Below, piece after piece: positions 1 through 63,208 of a stretch of 64,000 nucleotides of DNA (position 1 is the stretch's first letter; each line of letters begins with the position of its first letter). Location of the stretch: IMG/VR virus record IMGVR_UViG_2648501839_000008. One strand, given 5' to 3'. Source of the DNA: a virus (lineage: Duplodnaviria; Heunggongvirae; Uroviricota; Caudoviricetes). The position numbers and the translations under genes were made by a program. Below the pieces are notes generated by a model. The model did not search any database. It saw only the letters and a list, made by a program, of their open reading frames with translations, and had not been told where the DNA came from.

Positions 1-982
1 CGTAGTCGACAACAACCATGTCAGGCACCATGCCGTTGGCTTTCATGCTGTTAAGCATACGGTCCAGATCTGCCGGTGACATACTTCCTGACGGACGCTC
101 AACCACCCACAAACTACCAATCCCCTTCGTGGCTCCCAACTCTGCCAACTTACGATGAACCTCATCGCGCCGTTCCACCAGCTTGGACATTTCCGTCTCC
201 GACAATCTTGCATCAAAACGGTCGGATAAAATGGTGGTGTGAACCTCCAGCGAGAGATACAGAACATTGTAGCCAGCAAGCGTTGCGTTTATGGAAAACT
301 CACCCATTGCGGTCGATTTACCGGATTTAGCGAACCCCATGAAGAGCACCATTTCTCGCTTCGCCCAGCCTTTTTGGTACAGCAACCTATCGAGCAGAGG
401 GAGTCCAGTTGTAATGCTGTTTGGCACATACTCCTCTGAAGCCTCATATTCACGCGCTTTCAATCGCTCACTTGCGGAGGTGTAGTAGTCATAGATTCCG
501 GTCGCTTCGTTCGATCCAATCTGCTGAACCTTGGCCATGATTGCCATCGCCCCCTGAAAGTCGCCTTTCTCTTTCAGTTCAGCAGCCTTAATCAGAGCAT
601 CATCAAACGCTACGCTTTTTGCGAAGGTTGATACTTGGTCAACCATGTACGAGGTATCGGACAATTTTTCTGCAAGGATGCGCTTAAACGCAGCAACAAC
701 ATCGGCGAATAGTTCCTCACGGATAGTCTTATCGCGTTTCGCACGCTTAAGCATATCCAGAATCGCAGATGAAGAGGGCGCGCTCTTGTACATACGGTAA
801 TAGCCCGAAACCATATTAACCAATATGGCATTGGCCGCATTGGCAAATTGGCTAGGCACAACCAGATCTCCCGCACGAGTAAGAAACTCGTGATCACGAC
901 AAAAATATGCCGTCAGTCTGTTCTGGAAATCTTCATCAAACTCTTCGGACAGCCCGCGTCCTGTATGGCAAAGTTCGGTCAT
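1..982 (-). CDS. DnaB-like replicative helicase, N-terminal part (3' end runs off the window)
   Basis: Minus-strand frame open from ATG at 980-982 to position 1; translation MTELCHTGRG... contains a Walker A-like MGFAKSGKST about 225 aa in; RBS AAAGGAAAG upstream. Confidence 0.5.
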   Translation of the reverse strand, partial: MTELCHTGRGLSEEFDEDFQNRLTAYFCRDHEFLTRAGDLVVPSQFANAANAILVNMVSGYYRMYKSAPSSSAILDMLKRAKRDKTIREELFADVVAAFKRILAEKLSDTSYMVDQVSTFAKSVAFDDALIKAAELKEKGDFQGAMAIMAKVQQIGSNEATGIYDYYTSASERLKAREYEASEEYVPNSITTGLPLLDRLLYQKGWAKREMVLFMGFAKSGKSTAMGEFSINATLAGYNVLYLSLEVHTTILSDRFDARLSETEMSKLVERRDEVHRKLAELGATKGIGSLWVVERPSGSMSPADLDRMLNSMKANGMVPDMVVVDY

Positions 983-1949: not shown

Positions 1950-3644
1950 TTAATTATTAAGCAATCTGCTCACACGTAGTTTGTTAAGACTTGATCTAGA
2001 GGCCAGTTTCGTTAATGCACCTATTGCTTTATTCGTGATTTTTTGCTGTTCTTCTGTTAGTTCTTGCATACTTTTGAATCTGAGCAACCCCTTTCTCACT
2101 AAATCCAAAGCATCCTGATTGCGGGATAGTATCCACTTTAAATAATCATCTTCAGAGAAACTGTTAAGATATGCTATGTCACTATGATTAAATTTGCCTT
2201 CAATTATTTTGTATAAAACATTCTCTAAATTAGTCTCTTCAGGCTTCTTATCCATCAATTTTTTTTGAATTAGCAGACCTAACTTTTCGTTACCAAATAT
2301 CTCTACATACAAATTCCGAAAAGCAGTATAAGCATCATCTTGGCTAACAAAGGCATCTGCATATGCCTCTATATAACTATCACAATCAATCTCCAATCTA
2401 TTTAAGATATCAATCAAGCCTATGAAGTGAGCAACAGGTATGTGTGAAAGATTGTCGTTAATTACACATTTTATCTTAGAAATAAACTCAGATTCATTGT
2501 CCTTGAATGAGTCACTAAAAATATCCCAAACATTGTTAACATCACATAAAGCCTTGTGTTCTTTATATTGTTTATTTTTTTCTTCTATTATACCTCGAAT
2601 ATTGCTTTCAGTAGAAAGATAACCATTCTTGAGATAAAAATCTATGTCATCATCGAAAGCAATTTCCGCTCGTTCATAAATAACATCAAGACTATTAATA
2701 AATGAATATACAGAATCATCCTTTTTATCATCTAACATGTAATCAAATACATGTATGTTTTTAATTGATTCTTTAAACAAGGCATAATCAACACCTGGAA
2801 CACCAGAATAGTAAACCACTGAAAACAGAACCAATCTATTGATAAAACTTTCTCTAACCTTATCCTCTGCCAAGCTTAGCTCATTCCTAAGATTAACCAG
2901 AGATGTTTTTATTTTATTTAATATACGGATATTTTTAATGCCTAAGTCATTTGCTAAGACTTTTAACAAAAGAAAATCAGAATCAGTTTCATAAAAAACT
3001 TTACGTAAGTTCTTCTCAGGCGTAGGATCGTATTTTATTTCGACATCAATTACTTTTTCTCTGTACTCTAAAAACTGTTTTTTTGCAGTTTCATCATGTA
3101 AATTATCTTCATTTAAAATTAGAACAACTTTGCAACCTTTTCTTCTTGCTAATTCATCAATTACCCCCATAATTTCTTTAACTTCTAGCGAATTACCTTT
3201 TCTTTCAACATCATCAATACAAACCAAATAATTATTAACAAATTTATACTCAAGAGATGACAGCAGGTTATCTGTTTTGAACCCAAAAAAATCGTTCTTT
3301 CCGAAATGTATTAAAAATTTTGACAAGGAGTTGTATTTCAACCATCCCCAAAACCCATTTCTATAACGAATCATAGTTCGATCCGTTTCAGATAAAATTA
3401 GTTCTTTATATTTCTTTTCATTAATTGGTGTGGCACAATGATAAAGAGCTTTTTTAATATCACCAATAGAGTTAACCCCAAACAAAGAAACATACGAATA
3501 TGCATTAAAATCTAATCCTTCAGAATGCTTAGTATAAAAACTATTCCAATAATGAGTTTTACCAACGCCCCAATCTCCTTTTATGACGGCAACCCGATGA
3601 TCTGAAACTAGAAAATTTTTTAGAAATGATTCTATCGATTCCAT
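1950..3644 (-). CDS. KAP-family P-loop NTPase (candidate defence or abortive-infection protein), AT-rich cargo gene
   Basis: N-terminal Walker A VIKGDWGVGKTH, Walker B-like LVCIDDVERKG about 140 aa later, long helical C-terminal region; AT-rich codon usage unlike neighbours; probable ATG at 3644 with AAAGGA RBS (track start 3653 is TTG). Confidence 0.55.
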   Translation of the reverse strand: MESIESFLKNFLVSDHRVAVIKGDWGVGKTHYWNSFYTKHSEGLDFNAYSYVSLFGVNSIGDIKKALYHCATPINEKKYKELILSETDRTMIRYRNGFWGWLKYNSLSKFLIHFGKNDFFGFKTDNLLSSLEYKFVNNYLVCIDDVERKGNSLEVKEIMGVIDELARRKGCKVVLILNEDNLHDETAKKQFLEYREKVIDVEIKYDPTPEKNLRKVFYETDSDFLLLKVLANDLGIKNIRILNKIKTSLVNLRNELSLAEDKVRESFINRLVLFSVVYYSGVPGVDYALFKESIKNIHVFDYMLDDKKDDSVYSFINSLDVIYERAEIAFDDDIDFYLKNGYLSTESNIRGIIEEKNKQYKEHKALCDVNNVWDIFSDSFKDNESEFISKIKCVINDNLSHIPVAHFIGLIDILNRLEIDCDSYIEAYADAFVSQDDAYTAFRNLYVEIFGNEKLGLLIQKKLMDKKPEETNLENVLYKIIEGKFNHSDIAYLNSFSEDDYLKWILSRNQDALDLVRKGLLRFKSMQELTEEQQKITNKAIGALTKLASRSSLNKLRVSRLLNN

Positions 3645-3695
3645 TAGTATCAATCCTTTAATTCATATATTGGGCGTAACAAACGCCCAATATAA

Positions 3696-4055
3696 TCAAC
3701 CTTTCTTCATCAACTCTCGTTTAATTTCATCGGTACGCATCGTAACGTCGGCAGCTGTGATCGCCTCGTTAAGCTTCACGATGTCCTCGATTTCCTGCGG
3801 TGACTTCTCTGCCAGATGGAAAATGGCTGCTCGAATCACGTCAGAACGAGTGAACTTCTCGAAGCGAGGGATGAACTTCATCATCTCCAGCAGTTCGAAG
3901 TATTCGTCTTCCAGTGACATTGTGCGGCTTTTAATTTTCTCTTTGCCACGAGTCGGGCGTCCCTGTGGTCTGACTGGTTGGCGCAAAGGAGTTGTGTTCT
4001 TAGCCGGTGCATCAGGCTCTTTGCGCTTTGCTAGGTCACCCATTTTCATGGACAT
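3696..4055 (-). CDS. ParG-like ribbon-helix-helix partition protein
   Basis: 119 aa, basic disordered N-terminus plus C-terminal RHH-like segment; start overlaps parA stop (TAATG coupling). Confidence 0.45.
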   Translation of the reverse strand: MSMKMGDLAKRKEPDAPAKNTTPLRQPVRPQGRPTRGKEKIKSRTMSLEDEYFELLEMMKFIPRFEKFTRSDVIRAAIFHLAEKSPQEIEDIVKLNEAITAADVTMRTDEIKRELMKKG

Positions 4056-4723
4056 TATTCTTCTTCCTCCAGACTCAACAGATAATCTACAAATTCTTCA
4101 AACTCGGCTTCAGCCTTTTTGTCGCGCTCGCTACCGGTCATTTCGAAGATAGAACGACCAGACTCTTCCGCATCATCGTAGACGTTGCGGTTATATAGAT
4201 TGACTGGCGCAGACTCGATGCCAAACGTCTCGACAATCTCTTTAGCCGCCAGAATGCGAGACACTTGTGATGGCAAAGCCGGGCACTGGTTCATGACCGC
4301 GCGGACCTTCACTTTATCGTTTACATTACGAACATTGTCGATAATAGGATCGATGTCACGCAGAGATTTCAAATCACGACGCTTAGGACGAAGCGGGATA
4401 ATGATAACGTCGGCCATCAGCATCGCTTGTCGCTGAATTTCGGAGTCAAAGCCACCAGCATCTACCACTACAAACTCAGCTCTACCCTGAAGCGATTTTA
4501 GGTGCTTAATGATGTCATCCTGGACGTATGCAAAAGGAATCAGCTCAAGGTCTTCGTTCTGTCGACGGTCTTCACACCAGCTCGTTGTCGTGCGCTGAAT
4601 ATCTATATCGGTAATATAAACCTTCTTCTTCTTTTTGACTTTCAGGCAAACGGCAATTTGCTGGGCAACGGTGGATTTGCCAGGCCCGCCCTTTGTGCCG
4701 CCAACCACAAAGATCTTGGTCAT
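4055..4723 (-). CDS. parA: ParA/MinD-family partition ATPase
   Basis: Deviant Walker A GGTKGGPGKST at the N-terminus; 222 aa, small type-Ib ParA size; RBS AAGGGA. Confidence 0.7.
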   Translation of the reverse strand: MTKIFVVGGTKGGPGKSTVAQQIAVCLKVKKKKKVYITDIDIQRTTTSWCEDRRQNEDLELIPFAYVQDDIIKHLKSLQGRAEFVVVDAGGFDSEIQRQAMLMADVIIIPLRPKRRDLKSLRDIDPIIDNVRNVNDKVKVRAVMNQCPALPSQVSRILAAKEIVETFGIESAPVNLYNRNVYDDAEESGRSIFEMTGSERDKKAEAEFEEFVDYLLSLEEEE

Positions 4724-4742
4724 TAGAGAGTTCCCTTTGCGT

Positions 4743-4774
4743 ATATAATTATCGTCTGAAACAACTTGTTTTCT
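4743..4774 (-). promoter_or_regulatory. Class-A palindromic site upstream of parA
   Basis: tataattatcg + gaaacaacttgttttct. Confidence 0.5.
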
Positions 4775-4871
4775 TATATGTGATATAGCCTAAATGCCTA
4801 CGGCTGCGGTGTAAAGGTTAAATGGTAGGTGCTGCCTTAGAATTTTTAGGCGAGAATCAATGGCTGTTAAC

Positions 4872-4893
4872 AAAAAAGGCGACCGAAGTCGCC
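4872..4893 (-). terminator. Rho-independent terminator (minus strand)
   Basis: GGCGACTTCGGTCGCC stem followed by TTTTTT on the minus strand, just 3' of the gene ending at 4900. Confidence 0.6.
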
Positions 4894-4899
4894 TAATTG

Positions 4900-5652
4900 T
4901 TAATCTTTTAGATATAAACCAACTGGGGTTCTTGTTTTGCGGGAGATGATAAGTACGATAAATTTCTCAACGTTAACTTGCACCTTATTTGGAAACCAAG
5001 AGCTTAATTCTGGATCAAGTAACAATCCTCTGTTCCACGGCAAAAAGCCGGTTTCTTTTCCCATCCCATATTCGCCTAACACATCCTCGAACGTCTCAGT
5101 TTTTGCGTTGTAAATTCTTACATCACCTGTTCGCATTAATGGACCGGCCCAGATTTTTGCGCCAGGAATGGTCTGATTGTAATCACAGACAAGATGTTCG
5201 TACCAATGAAGGAGGAAGCGATACGTGAGGTTGCACAGTCCCCTTTGCCTTATTGCTCTTTCTGTCTCAACACCTGCAATCTGATAGCAGTCAATCTCTA
5301 CCCCATCCTCGATGAATGTGTATTCACGCAATGCAATTCTGCCTGCTATCGTGTTTCTGCTCTGATCGAGCATGTCGGAACGCAGAATTGCTTGAATAAT
5401 GTCCGAATCAGACATTCCATCTTCGCCTCTGTCCAGAATGAAGTCCATCAGTTCACCCTGATCTCGTGCTCCAACTTTCTCCATCAGGATATACAGACAG
5501 ATATCATCATCAGGCTCGATAATGGTTATTTCGGATATTTTGAAAAGCGATGCTTCGTTGATGAGGTAGCCAAAACGTGAAACGCGAGTTTCCCCACGGT
5601 GAGGAAACTCATAAAGATTTTTAGAGTATGTGCGTTCTAGTGTAGGTGCCAT
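4900..5652 (-). CDS. Hypothetical protein (250 aa)
   Basis: ORF track; ATG at 5650-5652; overlaps the upstream gene by 16 nt (coupled pair). Confidence 0.4.
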   Translation of the reverse strand: MAPTLERTYSKNLYEFPHRGETRVSRFGYLINEASLFKISEITIIEPDDDICLYILMEKVGARDQGELMDFILDRGEDGMSDSDIIQAILRSDMLDQSRNTIAGRIALREYTFIEDGVEIDCYQIAGVETERAIRQRGLCNLTYRFLLHWYEHLVCDYNQTIPGAKIWAGPLMRTGDVRIYNAKTETFEDVLGEYGMGKETGFLPWNRGLLLDPELSSWFPNKVQVNVEKFIVLIISRKTRTPVGLYLKD

Positions 5653-6020
5653 CTTAGAGCAGTACCATCAGCAGTTGTATTGCTGACAATGCTACCATGA
5701 GTATTAAGAAAGCGGCGAATTGCACTCTCAATAATTTCAGAGAATTGGTCACTAAACCGTGCTAATTCAGGGTATTGTTTTGCTGGCTTCACAATGAAAC
5801 GAACACGATCGTTCAGGAAAATCGCTTCAGCCAACGGTTTTACACTGGCACCAGCATTCTCAACATCGTCTTTGAAAGTTACGATGAAGCGAGTGTCTTT
5901 TGGCGCAGTCGCATCGTTGTTAAGTTTACGCACCTCAAGTTTGCGCTTATTCAGCACATGAGTTGCGATAACACTCGTGCAATCGCGAATTGTTTGTATA
6001 GAACGTTTTTCGTTCAGCAT
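5637..6020 (-). CDS. Hypothetical protein (127 aa)
   Basis: ORF track; ATG at 6018-6020. Confidence 0.4.
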   Translation of the reverse strand: MLNEKRSIQTIRDCTSVIATHVLNKRKLEVRKLNNDATAPKDTRFIVTFKDDVENAGASVKPLAEAIFLNDRVRFIVKPAKQYPELARFSDQFSEIIESAIRRFLNTHGSIVSNTTADGTALRWHLH

Positions 6021-6197: not shown

Positions 6198-6428
6198 TTA
6201 TGGTACTTTTCTGCCCCATCCACACAATCGCTCCCCTATCATATTGTGAAAAAGTACCTCTCTTTCAGTCTCTTCGGTCATGAGATCATCACGGCTGATG
6301 TATAGCGGTGTAGCCGCATCGCAGAAAAGCACACCAGCGGGTTGAGGCTTAATCACGCAACCACTTATTGTGCAACTCATGATGAACAGTAGAAGCATCC
6401 TTGCTCCGTAACTCATCAAGTGTTTCAT
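6198..6428 (-). CDS. o-spanin (Rz1-like outer-membrane lipoprotein), overlapped with the i-spanin gene
   Basis: Alternative frame across the Rz-like gene; signal peptide with lipobox ...FIMSCTISGC; start placed at internal Met (track ORF is 6198-6506). Confidence 0.4.
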   Translation of the reverse strand: MKHLMSYGARMLLLFIMSCTISGCVIKPQPAGVLFCDAATPLYISRDDLMTEETEREVLFHNMIGERLCGWGRKVP

Positions 6429-6600
6429 TTTTGACGTCCAATGTGCTTTGAAGTCGTTTCCTGTCTTCCTGTTTTGCCTTCTCTTCCATTGCTCGTCGCG
6501 CCGCATTTCCGCCCATCGTGTAAGCGCCGACCAGAACGAAAAGAACGGCAGCCAGCGTAATCAAAGCAACTTTTAGCTTTGTCATCAGGCTGCCTAGCAT
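6349..6600 (-). CDS. i-spanin (Rz-like)
   Basis: N-terminal TM segment (LKVALITLAAVLFVLVGAY) followed by a charged coiled-coil region; contains the Rz1-like ORF in another frame. Confidence 0.5.
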   Translation of the reverse strand: MLGSLMTKLKVALITLAAVLFVLVGAYTMGGNAARRAMEEKAKQEDRKRLQSTLDVKNETLDELRSKDASTVHHELHNKWLRD

Positions 6601-6601
6601 A

Positions 6602-7321
6602 TTAGACCATCCCTTTCTGGTGTCTTCTTACCTGCGACCAGGCAATGAATCCGGCCACAACAATAGTGGCAATGCCGAAGATGATGCGTACTGTATCCCC
6701 GCTAGAGATATGACCTTGTGCCTTATCCATAGCAGCGGAAACCTGCGGCATAACATCGGCCAGCTGCGCCAGACCAATACCTGCTGTAACAGTTGCGCCT
6801 GCAGTTTCTTTAGTTACAGGAACAGCCTTCACGGTTTTCACCGGCTTAACGACGCCAGCTCGACGCAGACCTTCCTCAATAACTTCTGCCGCATACCAGG
6901 TGTTCAGCGTTTTTAGCGGACCTCGCCCATTCTCATGGCGAATGATTGCCTCAACCAAAGGTCGAAGAATGTCGTAATCATGCAGATCGATGATCATGTC
7001 TGCGGTTACACCAACGGCTTTAGACACCTCATTAATGTAGGCGTCAGTGTTGTTTTCATTCGGCGGTGCCCAACGTTCAATAACTTCACGAATGGTATCG
7101 ATACTTGAGCCGTCTTTTGCGCGACGTTTGTCGTGGTAGGTAATTAGAGTCACCGCCAGCGCACGAATCCCCCAAACAGGGTCTTTAAACGTGCAAAAGC
7201 GCGGTTCGTCTGGATTCGCAATCAGACCTTGCCACGGTGATCCTTTATCAAGATTACCGGGGTTATTATTACGAATGCCTCTCGGAGTCTTCATCCTTGA
7301 TCTCCTGTTATTGCAGTCCAT
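6602..7321 (-). CDS. Putative lysis protein / peptidoglycan hydrolase candidate with C-terminal membrane anchor
   Basis: Lies between the holin-like and spanin genes; conserved-looking RNNNPGNL motif; C-terminal hydrophobic segment IIFGIATIVVAGFIAW; family not recognised. Confidence 0.35.
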   Translation of the reverse strand: MDCNNRRSRMKTPRGIRNNNPGNLDKGSPWQGLIANPDEPRFCTFKDPVWGIRALAVTLITYHDKRRAKDGSSIDTIREVIERWAPPNENNTDAYINEVSKAVGVTADMIIDLHDYDILRPLVEAIIRHENGRGPLKTLNTWYAAEVIEEGLRRAGVVKPVKTVKAVPVTKETAGATVTAGIGLAQLADVMPQVSAAMDKAQGHISSGDTVRIIFGIATIVVAGFIAWSQVRRHQKGMV

Positions 7322-7643
7322 TTTTTACGCCATACGCGGCTAACCCCAAAAGCAGTGCAGTAATAATGAACGACGTTATTTTAGAAACAATGCCGCCAAA
7401 GAACCCACTGGAGATGGAATCTAACCGGTTAAGGAGTTTGTCCAGGTTGGAGTGTTGAATACTATGTTGCGCCGGGGTCATATCACCAAAGTAGGTTTTC
7501 AGCTGATCATTGACCTCCTGGCCAATTTCTTCACGTAGCTCTTTACCTAATTTGCCAACAACCTCCCGAGCAACGATCGCGGCAATACGCTCAACTTGCT
7601 CTGTTGTAACGCCCGCCATCTCGTTCGACATGTTTTCCTCCAT
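7308..7643 (-). CDS. Small membrane protein (holin candidate)
   Basis: 111 aa with a single C-terminal TM segment; first gene of the putative lysis cassette. Confidence 0.3.
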   Translation of the reverse strand: MEENMSNEMAGVTTEQVERIAAIVAREVVGKLGKELREEIGQEVNDQLKTYFGDMTPAQHSIQHSNLDKLLNRLDSISSGFFGGIVSKITSFIITALLLGLAAYGVKNGLQ

Positions 7644-7693: not shown

Positions 7694-7714
7694 GTAGGTG
7701 TGTACTTACTTATC
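7694..7714 (-). promoter_or_regulatory. Class-B palindromic site
   Basis: gtaggtgtgtacttacttatc about 50 nt upstream of the gene starting at 7643. Confidence 0.45.
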
Positions 7715-7943
7715 ATTCAACATTGCAACGGACTGATGAGAAAGCACCTACTCCAACCCATCGCCAGTTATAGATGCTACCCGCTTTGTATAAGGTATAG
7801 TCGTTCACTTTTTTAACAGCATATATGGGTATGACTGTCTCCTGTCCACCAATGATAGCCTCACCATAACATATGGGTGTCGGCAATTTCTGACAGCCAG
7901 TAAGAGAGAGAACAACAGCTATTGTTAGAAATAATCTTTTCAT
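7713..7943 (-). CDS. Small lipoprotein (Cor-like superinfection-exclusion candidate)
   Basis: Signal peptide plus lipobox LSLTGC, 76 aa, located just after the tail fiber genes. Confidence 0.4.
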   Translation of the reverse strand: MKRLFLTIAVVLSLTGCQKLPTPICYGEAIIGGQETVIPIYAVKKVNDYTLYKAGSIYNWRWVGVGAFSSVRCNVE

Positions 7944-35378: not shown

Positions 35379-35417
35379 AGATCCCTCTAAAACACACAGA
35401 GCGCGTCCATGCGCTCT

Positions 35418-35475
35418 AAAACAACTTGTTTACTGCATTTTCTAACCAACTTGTTTTCTGGGTTGTTTAATTAGG
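35418..35475 (-). promoter_or_regulatory. Class-A palindromic sites (two) upstream of the packaging operon
   Basis: aaaacaacttgtttact and aaccaacttgttttct + ggttgtttaattagg. Confidence 0.5.
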
Positions 35476-35850: not shown

Positions 35851-36741
35851 TTATGCCGGTAAAGCAATTTCTAACGGTTTATCCAAAGGTTGTTTGTCGA
35901 ATGCCAGCAGTGGCAGCGTGTCAGGCAGTCGACGACCAAAGTCAGGGTTTCGATACACCCCATACAACGGAGACGTAAAGCTCAGGTTGTGAATGTCCTT
36001 GAGCAACTTCACAATGCTGGCCTCGTCCACCAGACTGTCGGCAATGTCCTGAATCGTCGTGCCACGATTCCGCCCAGCTTTTGCCAGGGAACTGTTCTTG
36101 TGGTAGTCCGCCACCAGATCACGCAGTGCACGGCGACGACGAGACTCGCTCATTGCGAACAACTCTTTGACGATCGCCTCGTTATCACCCGGGTCGGAAC
36201 GGAAATGGCGCTGGAATACACGCAGTGCACTTTCATAGCTCTTCGGTCGCTCAGGGCGGATGAACTTAAACCCTGCTTTCATGGCGAAGGGATTGTATTT
36301 ACTCATCGAGGACTGGATCTCAATGATTGGCCGGTCATGCATCCTGCTAACCAGGTTAATCATTCGATAAGAGACGCCTACGCCACGATACTGAGTATCC
36401 ACAACTGAGCGACTGATCACCGCAAAGTTGTTATTCACGTACCGACCCCAGTACTGGTTAGCCACGGTGGTATTAGTGGTTGGTTTCAACTTAGGAAACA
36501 TGCGGTGGCGAGGTGCCAACAGTAGTTTCGGGTAAGCCATAACCACGACGCCCACCAGACGGTCATCAAGTTCGCAGCGATAGTAAGTTGGCGCGAAAGG
36601 TTTGCCGTCTGTTTTGTAGTGAAGCGACTTAAGAGCGTGCCAGTCCTCTACAGTTCCCTTTGTAACAGTCATTCGCTCCAGAAAGTCCAGATGACGCGGA
36701 AACTCTTCAGGGCGGTAGCGTTTAATGATGATGTCCGTCAT
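35851..36741 (-). CDS. GNAT-like acetyltransferase-fold protein with C-terminal extension
   Basis: ...AVISRSVVDTQYRGVGVSYRMINL... resembles GNAT motif A (acetyl-CoA binding); 296 aa. Confidence 0.45.
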   Translation of the reverse strand: MTDIIIKRYRPEEFPRHLDFLERMTVTKGTVEDWHALKSLHYKTDGKPFAPTYYRCELDDRLVGVVVMAYPKLLLAPRHRMFPKLKPTTNTTVANQYWGRYVNNNFAVISRSVVDTQYRGVGVSYRMINLVSRMHDRPIIEIQSSMSKYNPFAMKAGFKFIRPERPKSYESALRVFQRHFRSDPGDNEAIVKELFAMSESRRRRALRDLVADYHKNSSLAKAGRNRGTTIQDIADSLVDEASIVKLLKDIHNLSFTSPLYGVYRNPDFGRRLPDTLPLLAFDKQPLDKPLEIALPA

Positions 36742-37403
36742 GAATGGACCTCATCGTGACTACCATTGTGATATTCCACCTTCACGCGTTCTTTGTAGTG
36801 CTTGGTGATCTGCATATCCGGGCGCAGCGCGTTCTTCAGGTCTTCGTGAGTCGTCGCCACCATTACCGTCGCACCAACCTTTCGAGCGGCACGCTGGAGG
36901 TTAGACGCCACAACCTGAGCGGTTACACGGTCGAGAACAGCGCCGAACTCGTCAGCAGCCCACACTTTAGCGCCTGACTCAATCAGTTTGGCAATCTTGA
37001 GACGATATTTCTGGCCGTCTGACATTTCAGAAGGCTTGCGAACAAACAGATATGCATCGTTCAGACCAGCCATAGATAACAACCCAAGCGCATCACTGGT
37101 CGTTTTGCCCAACTGATCGATGACGTTAACCTCATTATCGAAGGTAAAATCATCGATGGAGGCTACAGACAGCCCTTCATCCTTCATCTGTCGTTGCAAC
37201 TCGCGCAGCACAACGGATTTGCCGGAACCGGATTGGCCGGTGATGTACACCACATCGCCCTGCTTCACTTCCAGCTCCAGATTGTCGTAAAGCGTCCACT
37301 CTTTTTCGTCCAGGCCAAGCCCGAACGACTCAGCGATTTCCAACGTGCGCGTGGTTTTATTTACGCGTGTCTGAAACGATACGTTGATGATGTATTTGCT
37401 CAT
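36738..37403 (-). CDS. ABC-type ATPase (stand-alone nucleotide-binding domain)
   Basis: Walker A GQSGSGKS, signature-like SDGQKYR, Walker B VWAADEF, H-loop TTHE; 221 aa. Confidence 0.65.
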   Translation of the reverse strand: MSKYIINVSFQTRVNKTTRTLEIAESFGLGLDEKEWTLYDNLELEVKQGDVVYITGQSGSGKSVVLRELQRQMKDEGLSVASIDDFTFDNEVNVIDQLGKTTSDALGLLSMAGLNDAYLFVRKPSEMSDGQKYRLKIAKLIESGAKVWAADEFGAVLDRVTAQVVASNLQRAARKVGATVMVATTHEDLKNALRPDMQITKHYKERVKVEYHNGSHDEVHS

Positions 37404-38068
37404 GCAGCCATCTCCCCGGAAGAGATCTTCTCCGCATATGCCACAAATGCGTCTACCCCGCTTTCTCCCGTCATTTCTTCCATGTGGGCAAGCAAATCAC
37501 CAACAACAATGGCAGAGCCAGCAGGGAGCGTTTTAAAGCCCAATACGTCGACAACACGTACTTCTTCCGCTGCAACTTCACGACTGATCTCGGTGTGTTC
37601 ATCCTTCTGTCGTTTAGTTTCTTCGCCAAGATCGATAACTAGCGAGTCGGTGTCCATTTCTTCTGTCATACTGCCAACGAGAACATTCAACTCACGCTCT
37701 TCAAAGCCGAAAACCTCGATATCGTCCAGAACAAGCGACTCAAGCTCTTTCTGTAGCTTAATTGCATCGTAATCAATGCTGGCAAGTCGGTTATCTTCAA
37801 GGCGCTTCGCACGAACCTCGTCATCACTGAGATCATCGCGAACAATAACCGGTACGCGCTCAAGTCCAGCAAAAATTGCAGCCTCACGGCGGCCGTGGCC
37901 AGTAATAATTACGTCGTTCTTATCGACCGTAATTGGCTGGTCAAATCCGCGCTTTTTAATGGCTGCGGCTAGATCTCGGATCTGCTGTTCATCATGCTTT
38001 TTGGCATTCATCTCATAGGGAATAAGATCTGCCGGGTCGCGATATACGATTTCAAACTTTTTGGTCAT
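37400..38068 (-). CDS. ParB-like nuclease-domain protein 1
   Basis: ParB-box-like ITGHGRREAA; start trimmed to ATG 38066-38068, overlapping the upstream stop (TAATG). Confidence 0.6.
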   Translation of the reverse strand: MTKKFEIVYRDPADLIPYEMNAKKHDEQQIRDLAAAIKKRGFDQPITVDKNDVIITGHGRREAAIFAGLERVPVIVRDDLSDDEVRAKRLEDNRLASIDYDAIKLQKELESLVLDDIEVFGFEERELNVLVGSMTEEMDTDSLVIDLGEETKRQKDEHTEISREVAAEEVRVVDVLGFKTLPAGSAIVVGDLLAHMEEMTGESGVDAFVAYAEKISSGEMAA

Positions 38069-38748
38069 TACATACGCTCCTTGTAGTAGTCGACCAGCCA
38101 CACCAGAGCCTCACCAGCGTTCTCCATTTCATTACCGGTGTTAATAGCCTGCTCTTTGATGATGTTTTTTATGGTTTCTGCAACACGATCTGACGCATCG
38201 AAAGTTACTTTGAAGCGCATGGTCTGATGTTCCGCACCCACACGTTCGGTTTTCTCTCGTTTGTCGGTATCGACAGGCTCATCACTACCACGAGACAACG
38301 CCTCCAGTGCTTCAAGGTCGATTGCCGCCTCTTTTGCTAAAACCATCGAGATTTCGTCGTCATACGGGGCGATTTCAGACAGTTGATAGTCAAGTTCTGA
38401 CTGAATTTCTTCAATGAAGCGTTGCAATGCGATTTGGTCGTCTTCACCGTATCGCTCGTTGTCCACCAGTGACATCTGTTTAGCTACGACATCGCTAATT
38501 TTGCCCACAGAAAGCACCGGAACCGTTGAAATTCCTTGCTCAATAGCAGCACGCCAGCGATGTTCGCCGCCGAGGATTTCAAAAAATCCATCTTCAAGTT
38601 CACGAGCCAAAATTGGCTTAAAAAAGCCCAATTTTTCGATAGAACCTTTCAGTTTTTCAAAATTCTGCGCACCAACCGAATTGGTGTTCCAGGTATTCGG
38701 GCGAAGGTTGGCAACATCAACCTGCAAAATCGTGATTTTTACATCCAT
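38068..38748 (-). CDS. ParB-like nuclease-domain protein 2
   Basis: ParB-box-like EILGGEHRWRAA; 226 aa. Confidence 0.6.
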   Translation of the reverse strand: MDVKITILQVDVANLRPNTWNTNSVGAQNFEKLKGSIEKLGFFKPILARELEDGFFEILGGEHRWRAAIEQGISTVPVLSVGKISDVVAKQMSLVDNERYGEDDQIALQRFIEEIQSELDYQLSEIAPYDDEISMVLAKEAAIDLEALEALSRGSDEPVDTDKREKTERVGAEHQTMRFKVTFDASDRVAETIKNIIKEQAINTGNEMENAGEALVWLVDYYKERM

Positions 38749-40392: not shown

Positions 40393-40671
40393 ATGAGCGA
40401 AAAGAAAACAACTTATTGTCAGGTAGCATTGTCTGATAAGGCCAATGACAAACTTGGAAAGTTTCAAGTGAAACTAAAAGAAAAAAATATCAAAATGTCT
40501 AAGGCTGAAGTCATAAATACCATTCTGGAACAATTGACAATGGCCGACTTTGACAAGGTTATATCTTCTGTCGGGGCTTCCGCTAAGACTCGTGAGAAAA
40601 TCATGCGTATCTATGAGAACTCTAATATGACAAAGGAAGATCTCGAAACGCTATTAAGCAGATTAAAATAA
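40393..40671 (+). CDS. Small ribbon-helix-helix-like DNA-binding protein
   Basis: 92 aa; predicted beta-strand then two helices (TYCQVAL...KLKEKNIKMSKAEVINTILEQL). Confidence 0.4.
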   Translation: MSEKKTTYCQVALSDKANDKLGKFQVKLKEKNIKMSKAEVINTILEQLTMADFDKVISSVGASAKTREKIMRIYENSNMTKEDLETLLSRLK

Positions 40672-44560: not shown

Positions 44561-44593
44561 AACAAATTGTTTTCTTGTTTGTGTTAATTATCG
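44561..44593 (-). promoter_or_regulatory. Class-A site (palindrome plus extended -10-like element)
   Basis: aacaaattgttttct + gtgttaattatcg. Confidence 0.5.
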
Positions 44594-44743
44594 TTGTACG
44601 AATAAGGCGTCAAAGTGGAAAGTTGCGGTAGCCGGACGGGAACAGGTGGGTTTGTCGGTTGCCTGGAGGTAAGAGGTTGGTGTTTTTAGCCTGAGGGAAG
44701 CAGGATGGTCATTTAAGGCCACCAGCATTGGTGACCTTATTCT

Positions 44744-45031: not shown

Positions 45032-45044
45032 ATCCTCACTGCGT

Positions 45045-45110
45045 AAACATGTTGTTTTCTTGTTGTTGTAATTATCGCAGCGAGATAAAGGCAGAAAACA
45101 AATTGTTATC
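45045..45110 (-). promoter_or_regulatory. Class-A sites (two palindromes flanking TGCGATAATTA)
   Basis: aaacatgttgttttct + tgttgtaattatcgca + gaaaacaaattgttatc. Confidence 0.5.
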
Positions 45111-45987: not shown

Positions 45988-45997
45988 CACAACTCCG

Positions 45998-46040
45998 TAA
46001 ACAACTTGTTTTCTCAATGGCGTAAATAATACCAGTAAGA
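45998..46040 (-). promoter_or_regulatory. Class-A site
   Basis: taaacaacttgttttct. Confidence 0.5.
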
Positions 46041-46482: not shown

Positions 46483-46520
46483 AAACAACATGTTTTCTTG
46501 ATGGTGTTATTATCGCAATA
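46483..46520 (-). promoter_or_regulatory. Class-A site
   Basis: aaacaacatgttttct + gatggtgttattatcgcaat (TGcGATAAT on the minus strand). Confidence 0.5.
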
Positions 46521-46999: not shown

Positions 47000-47960
47000 G
47001 AGTTGAATAAATACGAAAAAGGAGGCGACACCCCTCCTTCCCTCCCCACTTATACATACCTGGCTTCTTCGCTATGCATGTTGTGTTTTATCTGTCTCAA
47101 CCTCTCTATAGGCGTTAATGCTCACTCCTTCCAGAATGTTCTATACGGCGACTATTTCTGTTGGTGAATTGGGTGTGTTGTTTTCTCTGTCGGTGTATGT
47201 GGTTTCGTTCGTTTTGCGGTGGTTCTTCTATGGGGTGTTCTCGTCGTTTTGGTGATTGTTCTTCTCCATGTATGGAGTAATGGCAGGTGGGCGAATCCTT
47301 TCGTTATTGTGTTTGAGTTGTTTGTCTGGAGTGTGTGAAGGGCTTTTGTAGTTATTCGTGTATTGGGTAATGGCGTTTCCCGTGATTGTTATGTTTCGTG
47401 TCTTTTGGGATTGAGAGAATCCTTGCGGTTACAGGCTTCGTTGGGTTTTCAGTGATTCTGGTGTTTCTTCGCTGTTTGGGGAATGGCGTGTCGTGGGTAT
47501 CGCGCGTATGAATGTTTTCGGATTGCCTGTGAAAGTTAGGTTGGCTGTCCGGTAGCCTGGGGAGAAGAGGTGGGTCTTTTCGGTAGCCTGCCATAAAGAG
47601 GTTGGTTGTTTTGGGGAATGGCATGTGTGTTATTTAGTTGTTTTGTTATAGCTGAAAATAAGTTGTTTATATAGTTATGTAACGCAATGGGAGTGATTTT
47701 GAGCGTGTGTTTTTTCTTGGTAGTGTGTTGGGTCGTCTGTGGTGAAAATTGGACGCTGTGGCGCTGTCTGCTGCGTAGAATTACGGGTATAAGAAGTGAT
47801 GTGTGAATACGTCAATTTTTTAGACCAAATCGGGTGAAAGCGTTGACGTTTCGTTGATCTGTTATTTAGTTGTTTTCTTATTGGTATAAACAACGTTAAC
47901 CTATTGATATTTAAAGGTGTGATTGCAGGTATGGAAGAAGAGTAGTGGCGATCAACGGAT
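47000..47960. repeat. Noncoding, strand-biased (G+T-rich on plus) degenerate repeat region
   Basis: No credible ORF; recurrent GGGGAATGGCGTGT-like and CGGTAGCCTGG..GAGGTGGGT-like units; the latter also occur at 44615-44690. Confidence 0.5.
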
Positions 47961-49695: not shown

Positions 49696-49762
49696 GAAAC
49701 AATTTGTTTTCTTATGTGGCTTATTATCTCAATCAACAAAAGGTAGAAAACAAATTGTTTTA
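49696..49762 (-). promoter_or_regulatory. Class-A sites (two palindromes)
   Basis: gaaacaatttgttttct ... ttattatctc ... gaaaacaaattgtttta. Confidence 0.5.
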
Positions 49763-49845: not shown

Positions 49846-51879
49846 TTACTTAACCTGGTGGCCAGGTTTAGCACCAGCATCCGGGCTTAACAGGAAGATA
49901 TCTTTCCCGCCGGGGCCAGCAGCCATCACCATACCTTCGGAGATGCCGAAGCGCATCTTACGCGGAGCCAGGTTAGCCACCATAATGGTGTGACGACCAA
50001 TCAGTGCCTGTGGGTCTGGATAAGCAGAACGGATGCCTGAGAAGACATTGCGTTTTTCACCGCCGAGATCCAGCGTCAGGCGCAGCAGTTTGTCAGAACC
50101 TTCAACAAACTCTGCGTTTTCGATCAGTGCCACGCGCAGGTCAACTTTGGCAAAGTCGTCAAAGGTGATGGTTTCCTGAATCGGGTCGTCTGCCAGCGGG
50201 CCAGTAACTGGCGCGGCAGTAGCTTTCACTTCTTCTTTAGACGCTTCCACCAATGCTTCCACCTGTTTCATGTCGATACGGTTATACAGTGCTTTGAACG
50301 GATTCACTTTATGGCCCAGCAGCGGTTGCTGGATGCCATCCCAGGTCAGTTCCGTATTCAGGAATGCTTCCGCACGTTCTGTCAGTTTCGGCAGTACCGG
50401 TTTCAGGTAAGTCATCAGCACGCGGAACAGGTTGATGCCCATTGAGCAAATCGCCTGCAGGTCAGCATCGCGACCTTCCTGTTTTGCGACTACCCAAGGA
50501 GCCTGCTCGTCGACATAGCGGTTAGCCAGGTCAGCCAGTGCCATGATTTCACGGATAGCTTTACCAAATTCGCGGCTTTCCCACGCTTCACCAATCACTT
50601 CAGCGGCATCAGTGAAGGTTTTGTACAACTGCGGGTCAGCCAGCTCGCTTGCCAGCACACCGTCAAAACGCTTATTGATAAAGCCAGCGTTACGGGACGC
50701 CAGGTTAACCACTTTGTTCACGATATCGGCATTCACACGCTGAACGAAATCCTCCAGGTTGAGATCGATATCATCAATGCGCGAAGAGAGTTTCGCAGTG
50801 TAGTAGTAACGCAGGCTGTCAGCGTCAAAATGATTCAACCAGGTGCTGGCTTTAATAAAGGTGCCGCGAGACTTGGACATCTTCGCGCCGTTCACCGTCA
50901 CATAGCCGTGAACAAACAGGTTGGTCGGCTTGCGGAAGTTGCTGCCTTCCAGCATGGCAGGCCAGAACAGGCTGTGGAAGTAAACGATATCTTTACCGAT
51001 GAAGTGGTACAGCTCGGCGGTGGAGTCTTTCTTCCAGTATTCATCGAAGCTGGTAGTGTCGCCGCGCTTGTCGCACAGATTCTTGAAGGAACCCATGTAG
51101 CCAATCGGTGCGTCCAGCCAGACGTAGAAATATTTACCCGGCGCGTTCGGAATTTCAAAACCGAAGTAAGGTGCGTCGCGGGAGATATCCCACTGTTGCA
51201 GACCAGATTCAAACCACTCCTGCATTTTGTTTGCCACCTGCTCCTGCAACGCACCGCTGCGGGTCCATGCCTGCAACATTTCGCTGAAAGAGGGCAGATC
51301 AAAGAAGAAGTGTTCAGAATCACGCATTACCGGGGTAGCACCAGAAACCACCGATTTCGGCTCGATCAGTTCAGTCGGGCTGTAGGTCGCGCCGCAAACT
51401 TCACAGTTATCGCCGTATTGATCTGGCGCTTTACATTTCGGGCAGGTGCCTTTCACAAAACGATCCGGCAGGAACATGCCTTTTTCCGGGTCGTACAACT
51501 GAGAGATAGTGCGATTTTTAATAAAACCGTTCTCTTTCAGGCGAGTATAGATAAGCTCAGACAACTGACGGTTCTCTTCGCTGTGCGTCGAGTGATAGTT
51601 GTCATAGCTGATGTTAAAGCCTGCGAAATCAGTCTGGTGTTCCTGACTCATTTCGCCAATCATCTGCTCCGGTGTGATACCAAGTTGCTGTGCTTTCAGC
51701 ATGATCGGCGTACCGTGGGCATCGTCGGCACAGATGAAATTAACCTCGTGGCCGCGCATTCGCTGGTAACGAACCCAGACATCAGCCTGGATGTGCTCCA
51801 GCATATGGCCGAGGTGGATTGAGCCGTTAGCGTACGGCAGCGCGCACGTCACCAGAATTTTCTTCGCGACTTGGGTCAT
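49846..51879 (-). CDS. metG: Methionyl-tRNA synthetase
   Basis: 677-aa translation from [26 protein letters not shown] (HIGH-type motif) through KMSKS to the C-terminal tRNA-binding domain; enterobacterial MetRS; true ATG at 51877-51879 (track ORF extended upstream). Confidence 0.95.
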
Positions 51880-52036
51880 AGTAGGCATTACTTCTTTGTA
51901 GTGAAAAGGGGCTTGATAGTAACAAAATGGCCTTATGTCTGCCATGTGATAACAGCATTTCTCATAAATGATTAAATGTCGCAGCTGGAGTACACTACAA
52001 GGCGACAATTGCGCAAATTAAAATAAAGGAGACGGG

Positions 52037-53137
52037 ATGAGCGAGTCCAAATCGCCGGATGCCCTGAGAGCAATGGTAGCCGGTACGCTGGCTAATTTTC
52101 AGCACCCAACCCTGAAACACAACCTGACTACGCTTAAAGCGTTACACCATGTTGCGTTGATGGATGACACACTGCATGTCGAACTAATCATGCCTTTCGT
52201 GTGGAATAAGCCTTTTGAAGACCTGAAAGAGCAATGTAGTGGTGATCTGCTCCGTATCACTGGCGCAAAGGCTATTGACTGGAAGCTGTCGTACAACATT
52301 GCCACGCTTAAGCGCGTCAAAAACCAACCAGGCATTAATGGTGTTAAGAATATTATCGCCGTAAGCTCAGGCAAGGGCGGTGTAGGCAAATCGTCCACAG
52401 CAGTAAACTTGGCACTGGCTTTGGCTGCTGAAGGTGCGAAAGTTGGTATTTTGGATGCCGATATCTATGGTCCATCAATTCCAACCATGCTGGGCGCGGA
52501 AAACCAACGTCCAACCTCACCTGACGGTACTCACATGGCACCTATCATGTCTCATGGCCTGGCAACCAACTCTATTGGTTATCTGGTCACCGACGACAAT
52601 GCAATGGTGTGGCGTGGACCGATGGCCAGCAAGGCGCTGATGCAGATGTTGCAGGAAACTCTATGGCCTGATCTGGACTATCTCGTTCTCGATATGCCGC
52701 CGGGCACTGGTGATATTCAGTTGACGCTGGCGCAGAACATTCCTGTAACTGGTGCGGTTGTGGTAACTACGCCGCAAGACATCGCGCTGATCGATGCGAA
52801 GAAAGGCATTGTGATGTTCGAAAAAGTCGAAGTGCCGGTACTAGGTATCGTCGAAAACATGAGTGTGCATATTTGCAGTAACTGCGGTCATCACGAGCCA
52901 ATTTTTGGCACCGGTGGCGCACAGAAACTGGCCGAGAAATACAACACGCAGTTGTTAGGCCAAATGCCACTTCATATCTCTCTTCGTGAAGATCTGGATA
53001 ACGGAACACCAACCGTTATTAGTCGTCCAGATAGCGAATTTACGGCTATTTATCGTGACCTCGCAGATCGCGTTGCTGCCCAAATGTATTGGCAAGGTGA
53101 AGTAATACCTGGCGAAATCGCATTCCGCGCAGTGTGA
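52037..53137 (+). CDS. apbC: Fe-S cluster carrier ATPase ApbC/Mrp
   Basis: Deviant Walker A SGKGGVGKSS, CxxC motif ...HICSNCGHH..., divergent from metG as in enterobacterial chromosomes; RBS AAGGAG. Confidence 0.9.
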   Translation: MSESKSPDALRAMVAGTLANFQHPTLKHNLTTLKALHHVALMDDTLHVELIMPFVWNKPFEDLKEQCSGDLLRITGAKAIDWKLSYNIATLKRVKNQPGINGVKNIIAVSSGKGGVGKSSTAVNLALALAAEGAKVGILDADIYGPSIPTMLGAENQRPTSPDGTHMAPIMSHGLATNSIGYLVTDDNAMVWRGPMASKALMQMLQETLWPDLDYLVLDMPPGTGDIQLTLAQNIPVTGAVVVTTPQDIALIDAKKGIVMFEKVEVPVLGIVENMSVHICSNCGHHEPIFGTGGAQKLAEKYNTQLLGQMPLHISLREDLDNGTPTVISRPDSEFTAIYRDLADRVAAQMYWQGEVIPGEIAFRAV

Positions 53138-53174
53138 TAAAAAGGTGGTGCAATGCACCACCTAAACAGTTCTC

Positions 53175-53564
53175 CTACATCACAGGACAATCATCAAACT
53201 CGCCACTTCTTGCGTCGTTGATAATGTGAGTGATCACACCAAACACGGCATTGCTGCCCGTGCATCCATCATCATCCTTTGGCAATGCTTCCTTCTTACC
53301 AGTTCTTAAATCCTCCAGATGCTGACGTGGATACTTCCGGTATCTTTTTACGCGATATTCCCCATCCAGAGCACATACAAGAAGAGATCCATCAACAGGA
53401 GTCAGTGAGGAATCGACCACCAGCAATGCACCCTGCAATATTCCCTCACGATGATGACTATCAGCCGCCCTCATGAAGTAGGTCGCTGAAGGATGTCTAA
53501 TTATCTGCTGATCAAGAGAAATACGGCTCTCAGCATAATCCGCCGCAGGAGAAGGGAAGCCCAT
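53175..53564 (-). CDS. UmuD-like (LexA/S24 peptidase family) protein
   Basis: C-terminal domain aligns with the UmuD/LexA catalytic core (Ser in ...AADSHH..., Lys in ...RVKRYRK...); SOS box immediately upstream. Confidence 0.65.
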   Translation of the reverse strand: MGFPSPAADYAESRISLDQQIIRHPSATYFMRAADSHHREGILQGALLVVDSSLTPVDGSLLVCALDGEYRVKRYRKYPRQHLEDLRTGKKEALPKDDDGCTGSNAVFGVITHIINDARSGEFDDCPVM

Positions 53565-53580
53565 AATACTCGCCTCTTAA

Positions 53581-53600
53581 TACTGTATATGCATACAGTA
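53581..53600. promoter_or_regulatory. LexA (SOS) box
   Basis: TACTGTATATGCATACAGTA = CTGT-N8-ACAG consensus, about 17 nt upstream of the UmuD-like start. Confidence 0.75.
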
Positions 53601-53894
53601 TATGTTGAAGCTATATATTTTTGAACTCTATCTCTTAAAAAAGATGTTAATAAGATGCTAACTATTGAAAGGCATAAATATATACAATTCCAACAAACGT
53701 TATTTTTAACAAATTTTTACTTCCCATTGACTTTCCCAGACTCCTTGTCTGAACTAATGTCCGCGGAAACCACTTTTTCCTTTACGAGTTATCCACAAAG
53801 TTATGCACTTGCACATAGTCTCTATAAATCCTATCTTAATTCGCAAGACACTGATGTTGCGGTATTGTGGGTACATTTGGTTAAAAACGGACAT

Positions 53895-53928
53895 TAAAAA
53901 AGCCCAGTTGACTAGGCTGGGCTTTTTA
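53895..53928. terminator. Bidirectional rho-independent terminator
   Basis: AAAAAAGCCCAG...CTGGGCTTTTT. Confidence 0.6.
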
Positions 53929-53959
53929 AAAGGAAACAGAGTTTGCGCCTCTGTTCCTG

Positions 53960-54157
53960 AGCCATAAGTATCTGGCGACTGAGCTAAGATTAACCGAATG
54001 TACTGGATTCATCAAGAAACGTTGAGCCGTCATGCTAGGTAATAATGACCATTTACCAAACATCGTTGTTCTCAAAGAAGATTTAAGTCCAGGTTTTTGG
54101 TGACTCTAAAACCTTACCTTAACTCGAAATCGTGCCGTAAGTATCTGGCGACTACAG
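53960..54157. repeat. Direct repeats (gtaagtatctggcgact x2; aaatcgtgccg x2) in a noncoding region
   Basis: Copies at 53965/54136 and 54126/54246. Confidence 0.5.
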
Positions 54158-58795: not shown

Positions 58796-58854
58796 CGTTG
58801 TTTTCTAGTTGTGGTTATTTTCACAAATAAGAAAAGGTAGAAAACAATTTATTT
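58796..58854 (-). promoter_or_regulatory. Class-A sites upstream of the nine-gene early operon
   Basis: ccgttgttttct + gttgtggttattttcac + gaaaacaatttattt. Confidence 0.5.
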
Positions 58855-61750: not shown

Positions 61751-61784
61751 AATAATTTGTTTTCTGATTGGTGTAATTATCGCA
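61751..61784 (-). promoter_or_regulatory. Class-A site
   Basis: aataatttgttttct + gtgtaattatcgca (TGCGATAAT on the minus strand). Confidence 0.5.
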
Positions 61785-62463: not shown

Positions 62464-62499
62464 AAACAAGTTGTTTTCTTATTGGTTTTATTGTGATGT
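62464..62499 (-). promoter_or_regulatory. Class-A site
   Basis: aaacaagttgttttct + ttggttttattgtgatg. Confidence 0.5.
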
Positions 62500-63168: not shown

Positions 63169-63191
63169 GTGTTTTCCTTTTGTTATTTGTC

Positions 63192-63208
63192 AAAACAAGT
63201 TGTTTTCT
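63192..63208 (-). promoter_or_regulatory. Class-A site
   Basis: aaaacaagttgttttct. Confidence 0.5.

Follow-up and report, generated by a model that had tools for sequence, protein, structure and literature searches.

The locus at positions 3696-4723 of a 64,000-nucleotide (nt) stretch of the virus record IMGVR_UViG_2648501839_000008 (Caudoviricetes), the whole of which is here called the window, raises the question of whether two small coupled genes form a partition module and whether the phage is carried by its host as a plasmid. An earlier interpretation made from the letters alone (the sequence-only reading) had proposed a ParA/ParG-type cassette and an extrachromosomal prophage. The analysis presented here indicates that the locus is very probably the partition module of a phage-plasmid of the SSU5/pHCM2 group, with a type Ib layout, belonging to a circular, low-copy prophage of a tailed temperate phage of ~110 kb. 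The two genes are:

4055-4723, minus strand: parA, 222 amino acids (aa), small ParA/ParF-class Walker ATPase
3696-4055, minus strand: partner gene, 119 aa, candidate centromere-binding protein

A check of open reading frames returned both genes on the minus strand at the same coordinates as in the sequence-only reading, with the ATG of the partner gene overlapping the TAA stop codon of parA by one base (TAATG). The coordinates, the motif described below and this overlap all agree with the small ParA ATPase with a deviant Walker A motif and coupled partner that it had described. The motifs of ParA were read from its sequence and from an alignment with ParF, and comprise the deviant Walker A at K11-T18 (G8-G-T-K11-G-G-P-G-K16-S-T, the first residue being residue 8), the A' motif at approximately D39/D41 and Walker B at FVVVD88. 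As Walker A begins at residue 8, the protein is without an N-terminal DNA-binding (helix-turn-helix, HTH) domain. ParA matches the Pfam families MipZ, AAA_31, CbiA and ParA, as well as PHROG 164, 'ParA-like partition protein' (4e-51). Its match to the NCBIfam family ParA_partition (NF041546) has a score of 115.7 bits (E 1.9e-33), which is under the equivalog cut-off of 180, and by these profile scores it is related to that curated equivalog but forms a separate subfamily. Its best relative of solved structure is ParF of TP228 (4dzz; E 1.2e-10, residues 9-199), with MipZ and Soj ranking behind. At the nucleotide level, parA is 84% identical to that of SSU5 and 98-99% identical to those of E. 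coli plasmids and the phages Cyrano, PhiR41_1 and CMS-2020a. The nearest ParA outside the phage-plasmids, 43% identical, is encoded beside a replication gene by a plain 12-kb plasmid of Acinetobacter; the parA gene there is followed by one for a 98-aa protein related to the partner family by hhalign (probability 80%, E 1.5e-5).

The association of the two genes is well conserved. In 15/15 loci a small ParA gene precedes the partner gene and shares its strand, the two genes either overlapping or being separated by a few bases, and this adjacency is kept down to ~31-35% identity of the partner across nine genera (Escherichia, Salmonella, Klebsiella, Kluyvera, Buttiauxella, Morganella, Photorhabdus, Xenorhabdus, and Moellerella). 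The partner is a member of PHROG 5111, which is listed as 'unknown function', and a family-profile search of 1.8 billion representatives gathered 18 clusters at 50% identity. All 18 belong to one small family, and none among them provides a bridge to an annotated ribbon-helix-helix (RHH) family. Family alignments show an N-terminal peptide, MGDLAK(R/K), that is invariant in close relatives and G-x-L-x-K-like in distant ones, followed by a variable, basic and disordered linker to approximately residue 40. After this comes a conserved segment, I-K-S-R-T-x-S-x-E-D-E (IKSRTMSLEDE in the window protein), which is a putative ribbon strand, and a conserved (T/S)RSDVxRAA helix, represented by FTRSDVIRAAI within helix 70-82. 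In AlphaFold models, residues 1-47 are disordered and helices are found at 48-59, 70-82, 86-97 and 101-117, the last two being extra C-terminal helices. The better of these models has a predicted local distance difference test (pLDDT) score of 73, rising to ~90 over residues 70-110.

The DNA beside the two genes was inspected for a promoter, an operator and a centromere. Its features are:

4758-4829, minus strand: non-coding core of 72 nt lying upstream of parA, a candidate for promoter, operator and centromere
4787-4815, minus strand: predicted par promoter, with a -35 hexamer TTTACA at 4810-4815, a 17-nt spacer and a -10 hexamer TAGGCT at 4787-4792
4758-4773: palindrome GAAAACAAGTTGTTTC, ~13 nt downstream of the predicted -10 hexamer
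4877-4894, minus strand: terminator-like hairpin with a T run, which ends the upstream gene at 4900-5652 and is the left limit of the par control region
3666-3694: perfect hairpin TATATTGGGCGT-ttgtt-ACGCCCAATATA with a 12-bp stem, in the 42-nt gap between the partner stop codon and the start of the KAP gene
1950-3653, minus strand: KAP-family nucleoside triphosphatase (NTPase), Pfam score of 24.9 bits against a threshold of 20

The 72-nt core is ~99% conserved across genera, with ~1 mismatch among E. coli, Salmonella SSU5 and Klebsiella pJN2-26. In the same comparison with SSU5 and pJN2-26, identity over parA is no more than 77-84%, and the sequences upstream of the core are unrelated. The window contains a single copy of the core. 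Distant relatives retain both promoter hexamers and the distance between them (TTTACA-17-TAGTAT in the alignment with the distant relative L008), and a simple consensus promoter scanner did not report this promoter. In the alignment that includes the distant relatives, GAAAACAAGTTGTTTC is the deepest-conserved cis element of the par operon, whereas conservation of the sequence within and flanking the hexamer pair (CCTACCATTTAACC ... CCGTAGGCATTTAGGC) is limited to the closer relatives. The 72-nt core may be read as a promoter plus operator, and it is the best candidate for both the centromere and the autoregulatory site. The hairpin at 3666-3694 was also considered as a centromere and was rejected, as it is missing wherever the KAP gene is missing. 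Homology to the KAP-less relatives begins at window position 3695-3698, and the gene that follows the partner gene in SSU5 and Cyrano lies directly against it; the hairpin is therefore part of the variable KAP side of the junction and not a centromere.

The distribution of the par region is that of a plasmid. Of 5,426 complete E. coli genomes, 264 contain it, at 265 places in total, each on a plasmid of ~100-120 kb and none on a chromosome, and in a search of one genome per species (GTDB) the partner gene was restricted to contigs of 7-109 kb. Identity over the par region is 86% to SSU5, 98% to the phages Cyrano, PhiR41_1 and CMS-2020a, and 78-80% to Klebsiella phage-plasmids. When positions 1-25000 and 39001-64000 of the window were compared, 99% was covered at 96-99% identity by circular E. 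coli plasmids of ~110 kb. One such relative, NZ_CP027358.1 (circular, 110,001 bp), is collinear with the window across the gap between these two parts and across the origin of the record, and the window is collinear with phage SSU5 as well. Because of this collinear coverage by circular plasmids, the window is taken to be a 64-kb piece of a phage-plasmid of the SSU5/pHCM2 group. The 46 kb of NZ_CP027358.1 that lie outside the window encode a Rep3-type 'RepB' initiator (Pfam Rep3_N), with at least 14 copies of an iteron, GTATGCTGTCAGCGG, distributed to either side of its gene (L002 18265-20021; NZ_CP027358.1 ~52266-54020). This locus is the plasmid origin of the group, and the window itself has zero copies of the iteron. 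Circularity, Rep3_N and iterons are features established in the closest complete relatives of the window. The extrachromosomal lifestyle put forward by the sequence-only reading is hence supported, by 265/265 places on plasmids and by circular relatives, and it is already documented: the SSU5/pHCM2 group has been described as the largest collection of phage-plasmids related to one another in enterobacteria (PMC7969092), and an E. coli lineage of the SSU5 group has been noted with its replication and partition genes (PMC8085198; bioRxiv 10.1101/2025.09.12.675607).

The same reading had also rested on there being no integrase. This is correct for the window, in which a tblastn search with the recombinase of relatives gave no hit, and incorrect for the replicon, as relatives carry a recombinase ~9 kb outside the window. 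In NZ_CP027358.1 it adjoins an HTH regulator, ~9 kb left of position 1 of the window:

NZ_CP027358.1 70195-71298 (L002 36196-37299): tyrosine recombinase (Pfam Phage_integrase)
NZ_CP027358.1 69814-70200 (L002 35815-36201): HTH regulator

This recombinase and regulator pair is conserved in the E. coli, Klebsiella and distant Moellerella relatives, and all of the copies seen are on plasmids. Its conservation could be taken to mean that the element is a prophage which integrates by way of this recombinase, with the ParA pair serving in positioning, exclusion or a toxin-antitoxin function. A preprint describing chromosomally integrated SSU5-like repB/parA segments in S. Agona, lacking phage structural genes, would be in keeping with this, as would the record of phage Cyrano, which labels the partner 'RelE/ParE putative toxin'. 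We regard integration as very unlikely, given that 0/265 of the E. coli places are chromosomal, that no contig with the partner gene exceeds 109 kb, that the relatives form closed circles and have Rep3 and iterons, and that the partner has no RelE/ParE match. The window has no tRNA genes, no Rfam features and no att-like duplication. An inspection of the rest of the replicon in NZ_CP027358.1, which is the check that had been suggested, found the recombinase, no chromosomal flanks, a circular record and no annotated protelomerase anywhere. An integrase with att sites and chromosomal flanks had been named as evidence that would speak against a plasmid; what the relatives contain is a recombinase and no chromosomal copies. 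A role for the recombinase as a multimer resolvase, or its being a relic, is more likely than one as an integrator, and the pair is probably a multimer resolvase with a repressor. Phage P1 carries Cre, which is the multimer resolvase of that phage, and by analogy with Cre this is the most economical role for the recombinase here.

The toxin label on the partner (Cyrano OV696614.1, CYRAN_29; L006 2502-2861) is probably an annotation error. The partner had no Pfam match to such a toxin even at E values up to 10, and neither NCBIfam nor PHROGs returned a toxin family.

Beside the gene identities, coupling, synteny, plasmid-only distribution and conserved cis block observed here, a mechanism of the following kind may be proposed for the partition module. 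The partner most likely serves as the factor that binds the centromere and regulates its own operon. As a dimer, the 119-aa protein would bind the conserved block upstream of parA through a probable RHH core (residues ~41-82), and this binding would both repress the operon and mark the plasmid. ParA-ATP dimers would be located on the nucleoid, where the invariant, disordered N-terminal peptide of the partner would touch ParA and stimulate ATP hydrolysis, so that plasmid copies would separate by the usual ParA gradient (diffusion-ratchet). Replication would proceed from elsewhere on the replicon, through the Rep3/RepB initiator and its iterons.

A number of points weigh against this account. 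No experiment on the par module was found in the literature searched. The monomer AlphaFold models have no strand at residues 41-47; neither the full-length partner nor the family profile gave a significant Pfam, NCBIfam, PDB-sequence or fold match; and the family profile compared with ParG (1p94) gave an hhalign probability of 0.1%. There is no type Ib-style repeat array in 4724-4900, where one ACTC is found close to the ribosome-binding site. The palindrome of the par promoter is common to at least 15 other sites and may belong to a different regulator. Finally, the replicon also encodes two ParB_N-domain proteins elsewhere.

With regard to the fold of the partner, several weak matches point in the same direction. 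A homolog (P0027), when trimmed to its core, scored 21.2 bits on Pfam RHH_1 (gathering score 20.5) over profile positions 3-36 of 39, and a second (P0035), trimmed likewise, matched RHH_1 at E 0.0044. In the NCBIfam search the window partner matched the RHH family aCcr1 at E 2e-4, under the cut-off of that family, and the partner profile searched against the PDB retrieved the RHH protein ORF56 at E 1.4. All of these matches share one register, which is that of the predicted strand-helix-helix, and the helices of the AlphaFold models are compatible with a strand-helix-helix following a disordered N-terminus. Support of this kind is convergent but weak, and the partner is probably an RHH protein. 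Of the RHH partner that had been proposed, the coupled gene is thus confirmed and the fold is weakly supported. The 'ParG-type' label stands as a description of architecture and fails as one of homology, in view of the hhalign result above; Pfam likewise gave no ParG match. Sequence comparison places the partner outside the ParG family, and the module is type Ib-like in its architecture and not by homology to ParG.

The two ParB_N-domain proteins lie ~33 kb from parA, together with two ATP-binding cassette (ABC)-type ATPase genes:

37400-38101 and 38068-38748, minus strand: two ParB_N-domain proteins, matching the ParB N-terminal domain alone
36738-37403 and 35851-36741, minus strand: two ABC-type ATPase genes, which follow the ParB_N genes just upstream of the terminase genes

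It could be proposed that one of these ParB_N proteins (37400-38748) is the true centromere-binding partner of ParA, the 119-aa protein being a regulator or an unrelated gene. The presence of two such proteins, conserved even in the Moellerella relative, and the use of an SSU5 'parB' as a marker gene in a published screen (bioRxiv 10.1101/2025.09.12.675607) speak for this. Their genes are, however, in the packaging region with the ABC-type ATPases and terminase and not beside parA, and carry the ParB_N domain only, while ParA is without the N-terminal domain that ParAs working with large ParBs typically have. The overlap or adjacency of parA and the partner gene in 15/15 loci also argues against a ParB_N partner, and an invariant N-terminal peptide with a disordered tail after it is how small ParA-activating partners are usually built, a feature described for ParG (PMC3130281). 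A ParB_N protein as the partner of ParA is accordingly considered improbable, and the 119-aa protein is retained in this role. The arrangement of ParB_N and ABC-type ATPase genes is kept in the Moellerella relative. The ParB_N genes of the window adjoin no ParA gene.

The palindrome at the par promoter is one of a set that is spread over the window, of the form GAAAACAA-N-TTGTTTTC and 16-17 bp in length. No other palindrome in the window comes near it in enrichment: allowing one mismatch or none, AACAANNTGTTTTC has 24 copies in the 64 kb against 0.72 expected, and exact AAACA-N3-TGTTT has 10 copies against 0.25 expected. The sites are:

1003-1017, 4758-4773, 35417-35458, 40404-40417, 44561-44574, 45043-45110 and 45997-46013: palindrome sites, first half of the list
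46483-46497, 47654-47667, 49697-49762, 58840-58853, 61751-61764, 62464-62478 and 63191-63207: palindrome sites, second half of the list

Most copies are found 5-66 nt upstream of gene starts. The genes behind them include those of the DnaB-like helicase and parA, the DNA-binding gene that precedes the terminase and, within 44.5-49.8 kb and 58.8-63.2 kb, many small (early) genes. A relative has just three copies across its 47 kb of DNA-metabolism and replication genes, and in the distant relative L008 the palindrome is kept at the parA and helicase positions. The sequence-only reading had spoken of iteron-like repeats in the window. These repeats were assessed as iterons and rejected, being a dispersed, promoter-proximal palindrome spread upstream of genes, with the true iterons located beside RepB outside the window. 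From their distribution and their conservation across relatives, the sites are more readily understood as operators or promoter elements of a lineage-specific regulon.

It might be supposed that the par operon is wired into this replicon-wide regulon, and we consider this unlikely. The further proposal that the 119-aa protein is itself the replicon-wide regulator acting on GAAAACAA-N-TTGTTTTC, with the sites serving as multiple centromeres and operators in the manner of the N15 inverted repeats (IRs) or KorB of RK2, is likewise doubtful. In its favor are the strong over-representation of the palindrome just upstream of gene starts, its deepest conservation at the par promoter, its retention at the parA and DnaB positions in the distant relative, and the precedent of N15 with its four dispersed IR centromere palindromes, IR1-4 (PMC7205306). 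Yet in the Moellerella relative, whose homologous partner has nearly the same putative ribbon strand, 50 kb contain no copy of the palindrome. A 17-bp palindrome also fits an HTH repressor equally well, and the relatives encode one beside the recombinase; an HTH repressor is the default guess for the protein that binds it. The half-site GAAAACAA was tried as a family-wide site of the partner and found no support, with 5 found against 5.5 expected in the Moellerella relative. Were the partner to bind all of the sites, it would be at once a global repressor and a multi-site centromere protein, coupling segregation to the control of lytic genes, and would represent a type Ib counterpart of the dispersed IR centromeres of N15 or of RK2 KorB.

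The small-gene region also contains two tandem pairs of a 31-nt repeat (44621-44681 and 47545-47606, ~2.9 kb apart), with a consensus near CGGTAGCCTGG..AGAGGTGGGT and no Rfam family match.

The genes surrounding the module are as follows, with the endolysin, spanins and KAP NTPase confirming that it is located between lysis genes and a KAP NTPase. The DnaB-like helicase that had been noted in the window is also present, as a truncated gene:

2-982, minus strand: DnaB-like helicase, truncated by the window edge
4900-6020: two hypothetical genes, between the lysis genes and parA
6198-6600: Rz/Rz1-like spanins
6602-7321: endolysin, 94% identical to that of SSU5
7308-7643: gene in the holin position
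7713-7943, minus strand: Cor-type superinfection-exclusion lipoprotein (PHROG 1119, 3.6e-30), between the lysis and tail-fiber genes
53175-53564, minus strand: HumD-family (UmuD'-like) translesion polymerase subunit (NCBIfam HumD, 219.8 bits), directly beside apbC

The KAP gene is of low guanine-cytosine (GC) content (0.335 over 2001-4000 against ~0.47 elsewhere) and is present in some relatives only; SSU5, Cyrano and pJN2-26 have other cargo in the slot. The gene has the look of an exchangeable accessory or defense-type insertion beside the par module. A metG-apbC segment at 49846-53137 had been described as unusual in such an element. It is ~90% identical to the E. coli chromosomal copy, is flanked by phage-plasmid genes on both sides and is found at 95% identity or more at 223 plasmid places among the complete E. 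coli genomes. It is consequently common in the plasmid lineage, and is a diverged second copy (including an essential tRNA ligase) that has been fixed there and not a chromosome junction. No literature linking SSU5 and metG was found.

Taken as a whole, this is a known element carrying a type Ib-like partition module of an ordinary kind, with little that is new. Clinical Enterobacteriaceae commonly carry phage-plasmids of the SSU5/pHCM2 type, which have been catalogued before, and the annotation of SSU5 already includes parA. A modest interest remains in the annotation of the partner family, in the 72-nt candidate centromere and in the replicon-wide palindrome at the par promoter. The 119-aa gene is at present 'hypothetical' or mislabeled (PHROG 5111, with no Pfam family), and its best annotation is that of ParA partner and putative centromere-binding protein. 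The 72-nt block is a candidate incompatibility determinant as well as a candidate centromere. The partner annotation, the 72-nt block and the palindrome could aid the typing of elements and the prediction of incompatibility between co-resident phage-plasmids, and could help the study of lysogeny control in the SSU5/pHCM2 group.

Among known systems, the closest are SSU5 (SSU5_033, 'ParA-like partition protein', and SSU5_034) and the pHCM2-family plasmids of E. coli, Salmonella and Klebsiella, whose genes are orthologous to the par genes of the window. This family shares the order of lysis genes, parA, partner and helicase, and the same 72-nt core upstream. Only the flanks differ, the window having the low-GC KAP gene downstream and the two hypothetical genes upstream; the flank cargo of relatives differs in turn, an example being the KacAT toxin-antitoxin pair in Cyrano. 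The ParF-ParG-parH system of TP228 is similar in having a small Walker ATPase, a small partner encoded downstream of it and a control region upstream of the operon. The partner would resemble ParG in its predicted flexible N-terminal tail and probable RHH core, which are features of that family (PMC3130281), and differs from it in length (119 aa compared to 76), in its two extra C-terminal helices and in having no detectable homology. The parH centromere is an array of ACTC-type boxes (PMC3130281), whereas the window has no ACTC tetramer box array and in its place a unique 72-nt block that ends in a 16-bp palindrome.

Phages P1 and N15 are comparable as temperate phages that are kept as low-copy plasmids with their own replication and active partition. 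A further likeness to P1 is that it has Cre where the SSU5-like group has a tyrosine recombinase. The partition systems of P1 and N15 are of type Ia, with a large ParA/SopA and a ParB/SopB having HTH and ParB_N domains. In the window, by contrast with such type Ia ParABS systems, ParA is small and the ParB_N proteins are 33 kb away and have the ParB_N domain only. The dispersal of a palindrome over the genome is shared with N15 (PMC7205306). N15 is linear and has a protelomerase, while the relatives of the window are circular with no protelomerase annotated.

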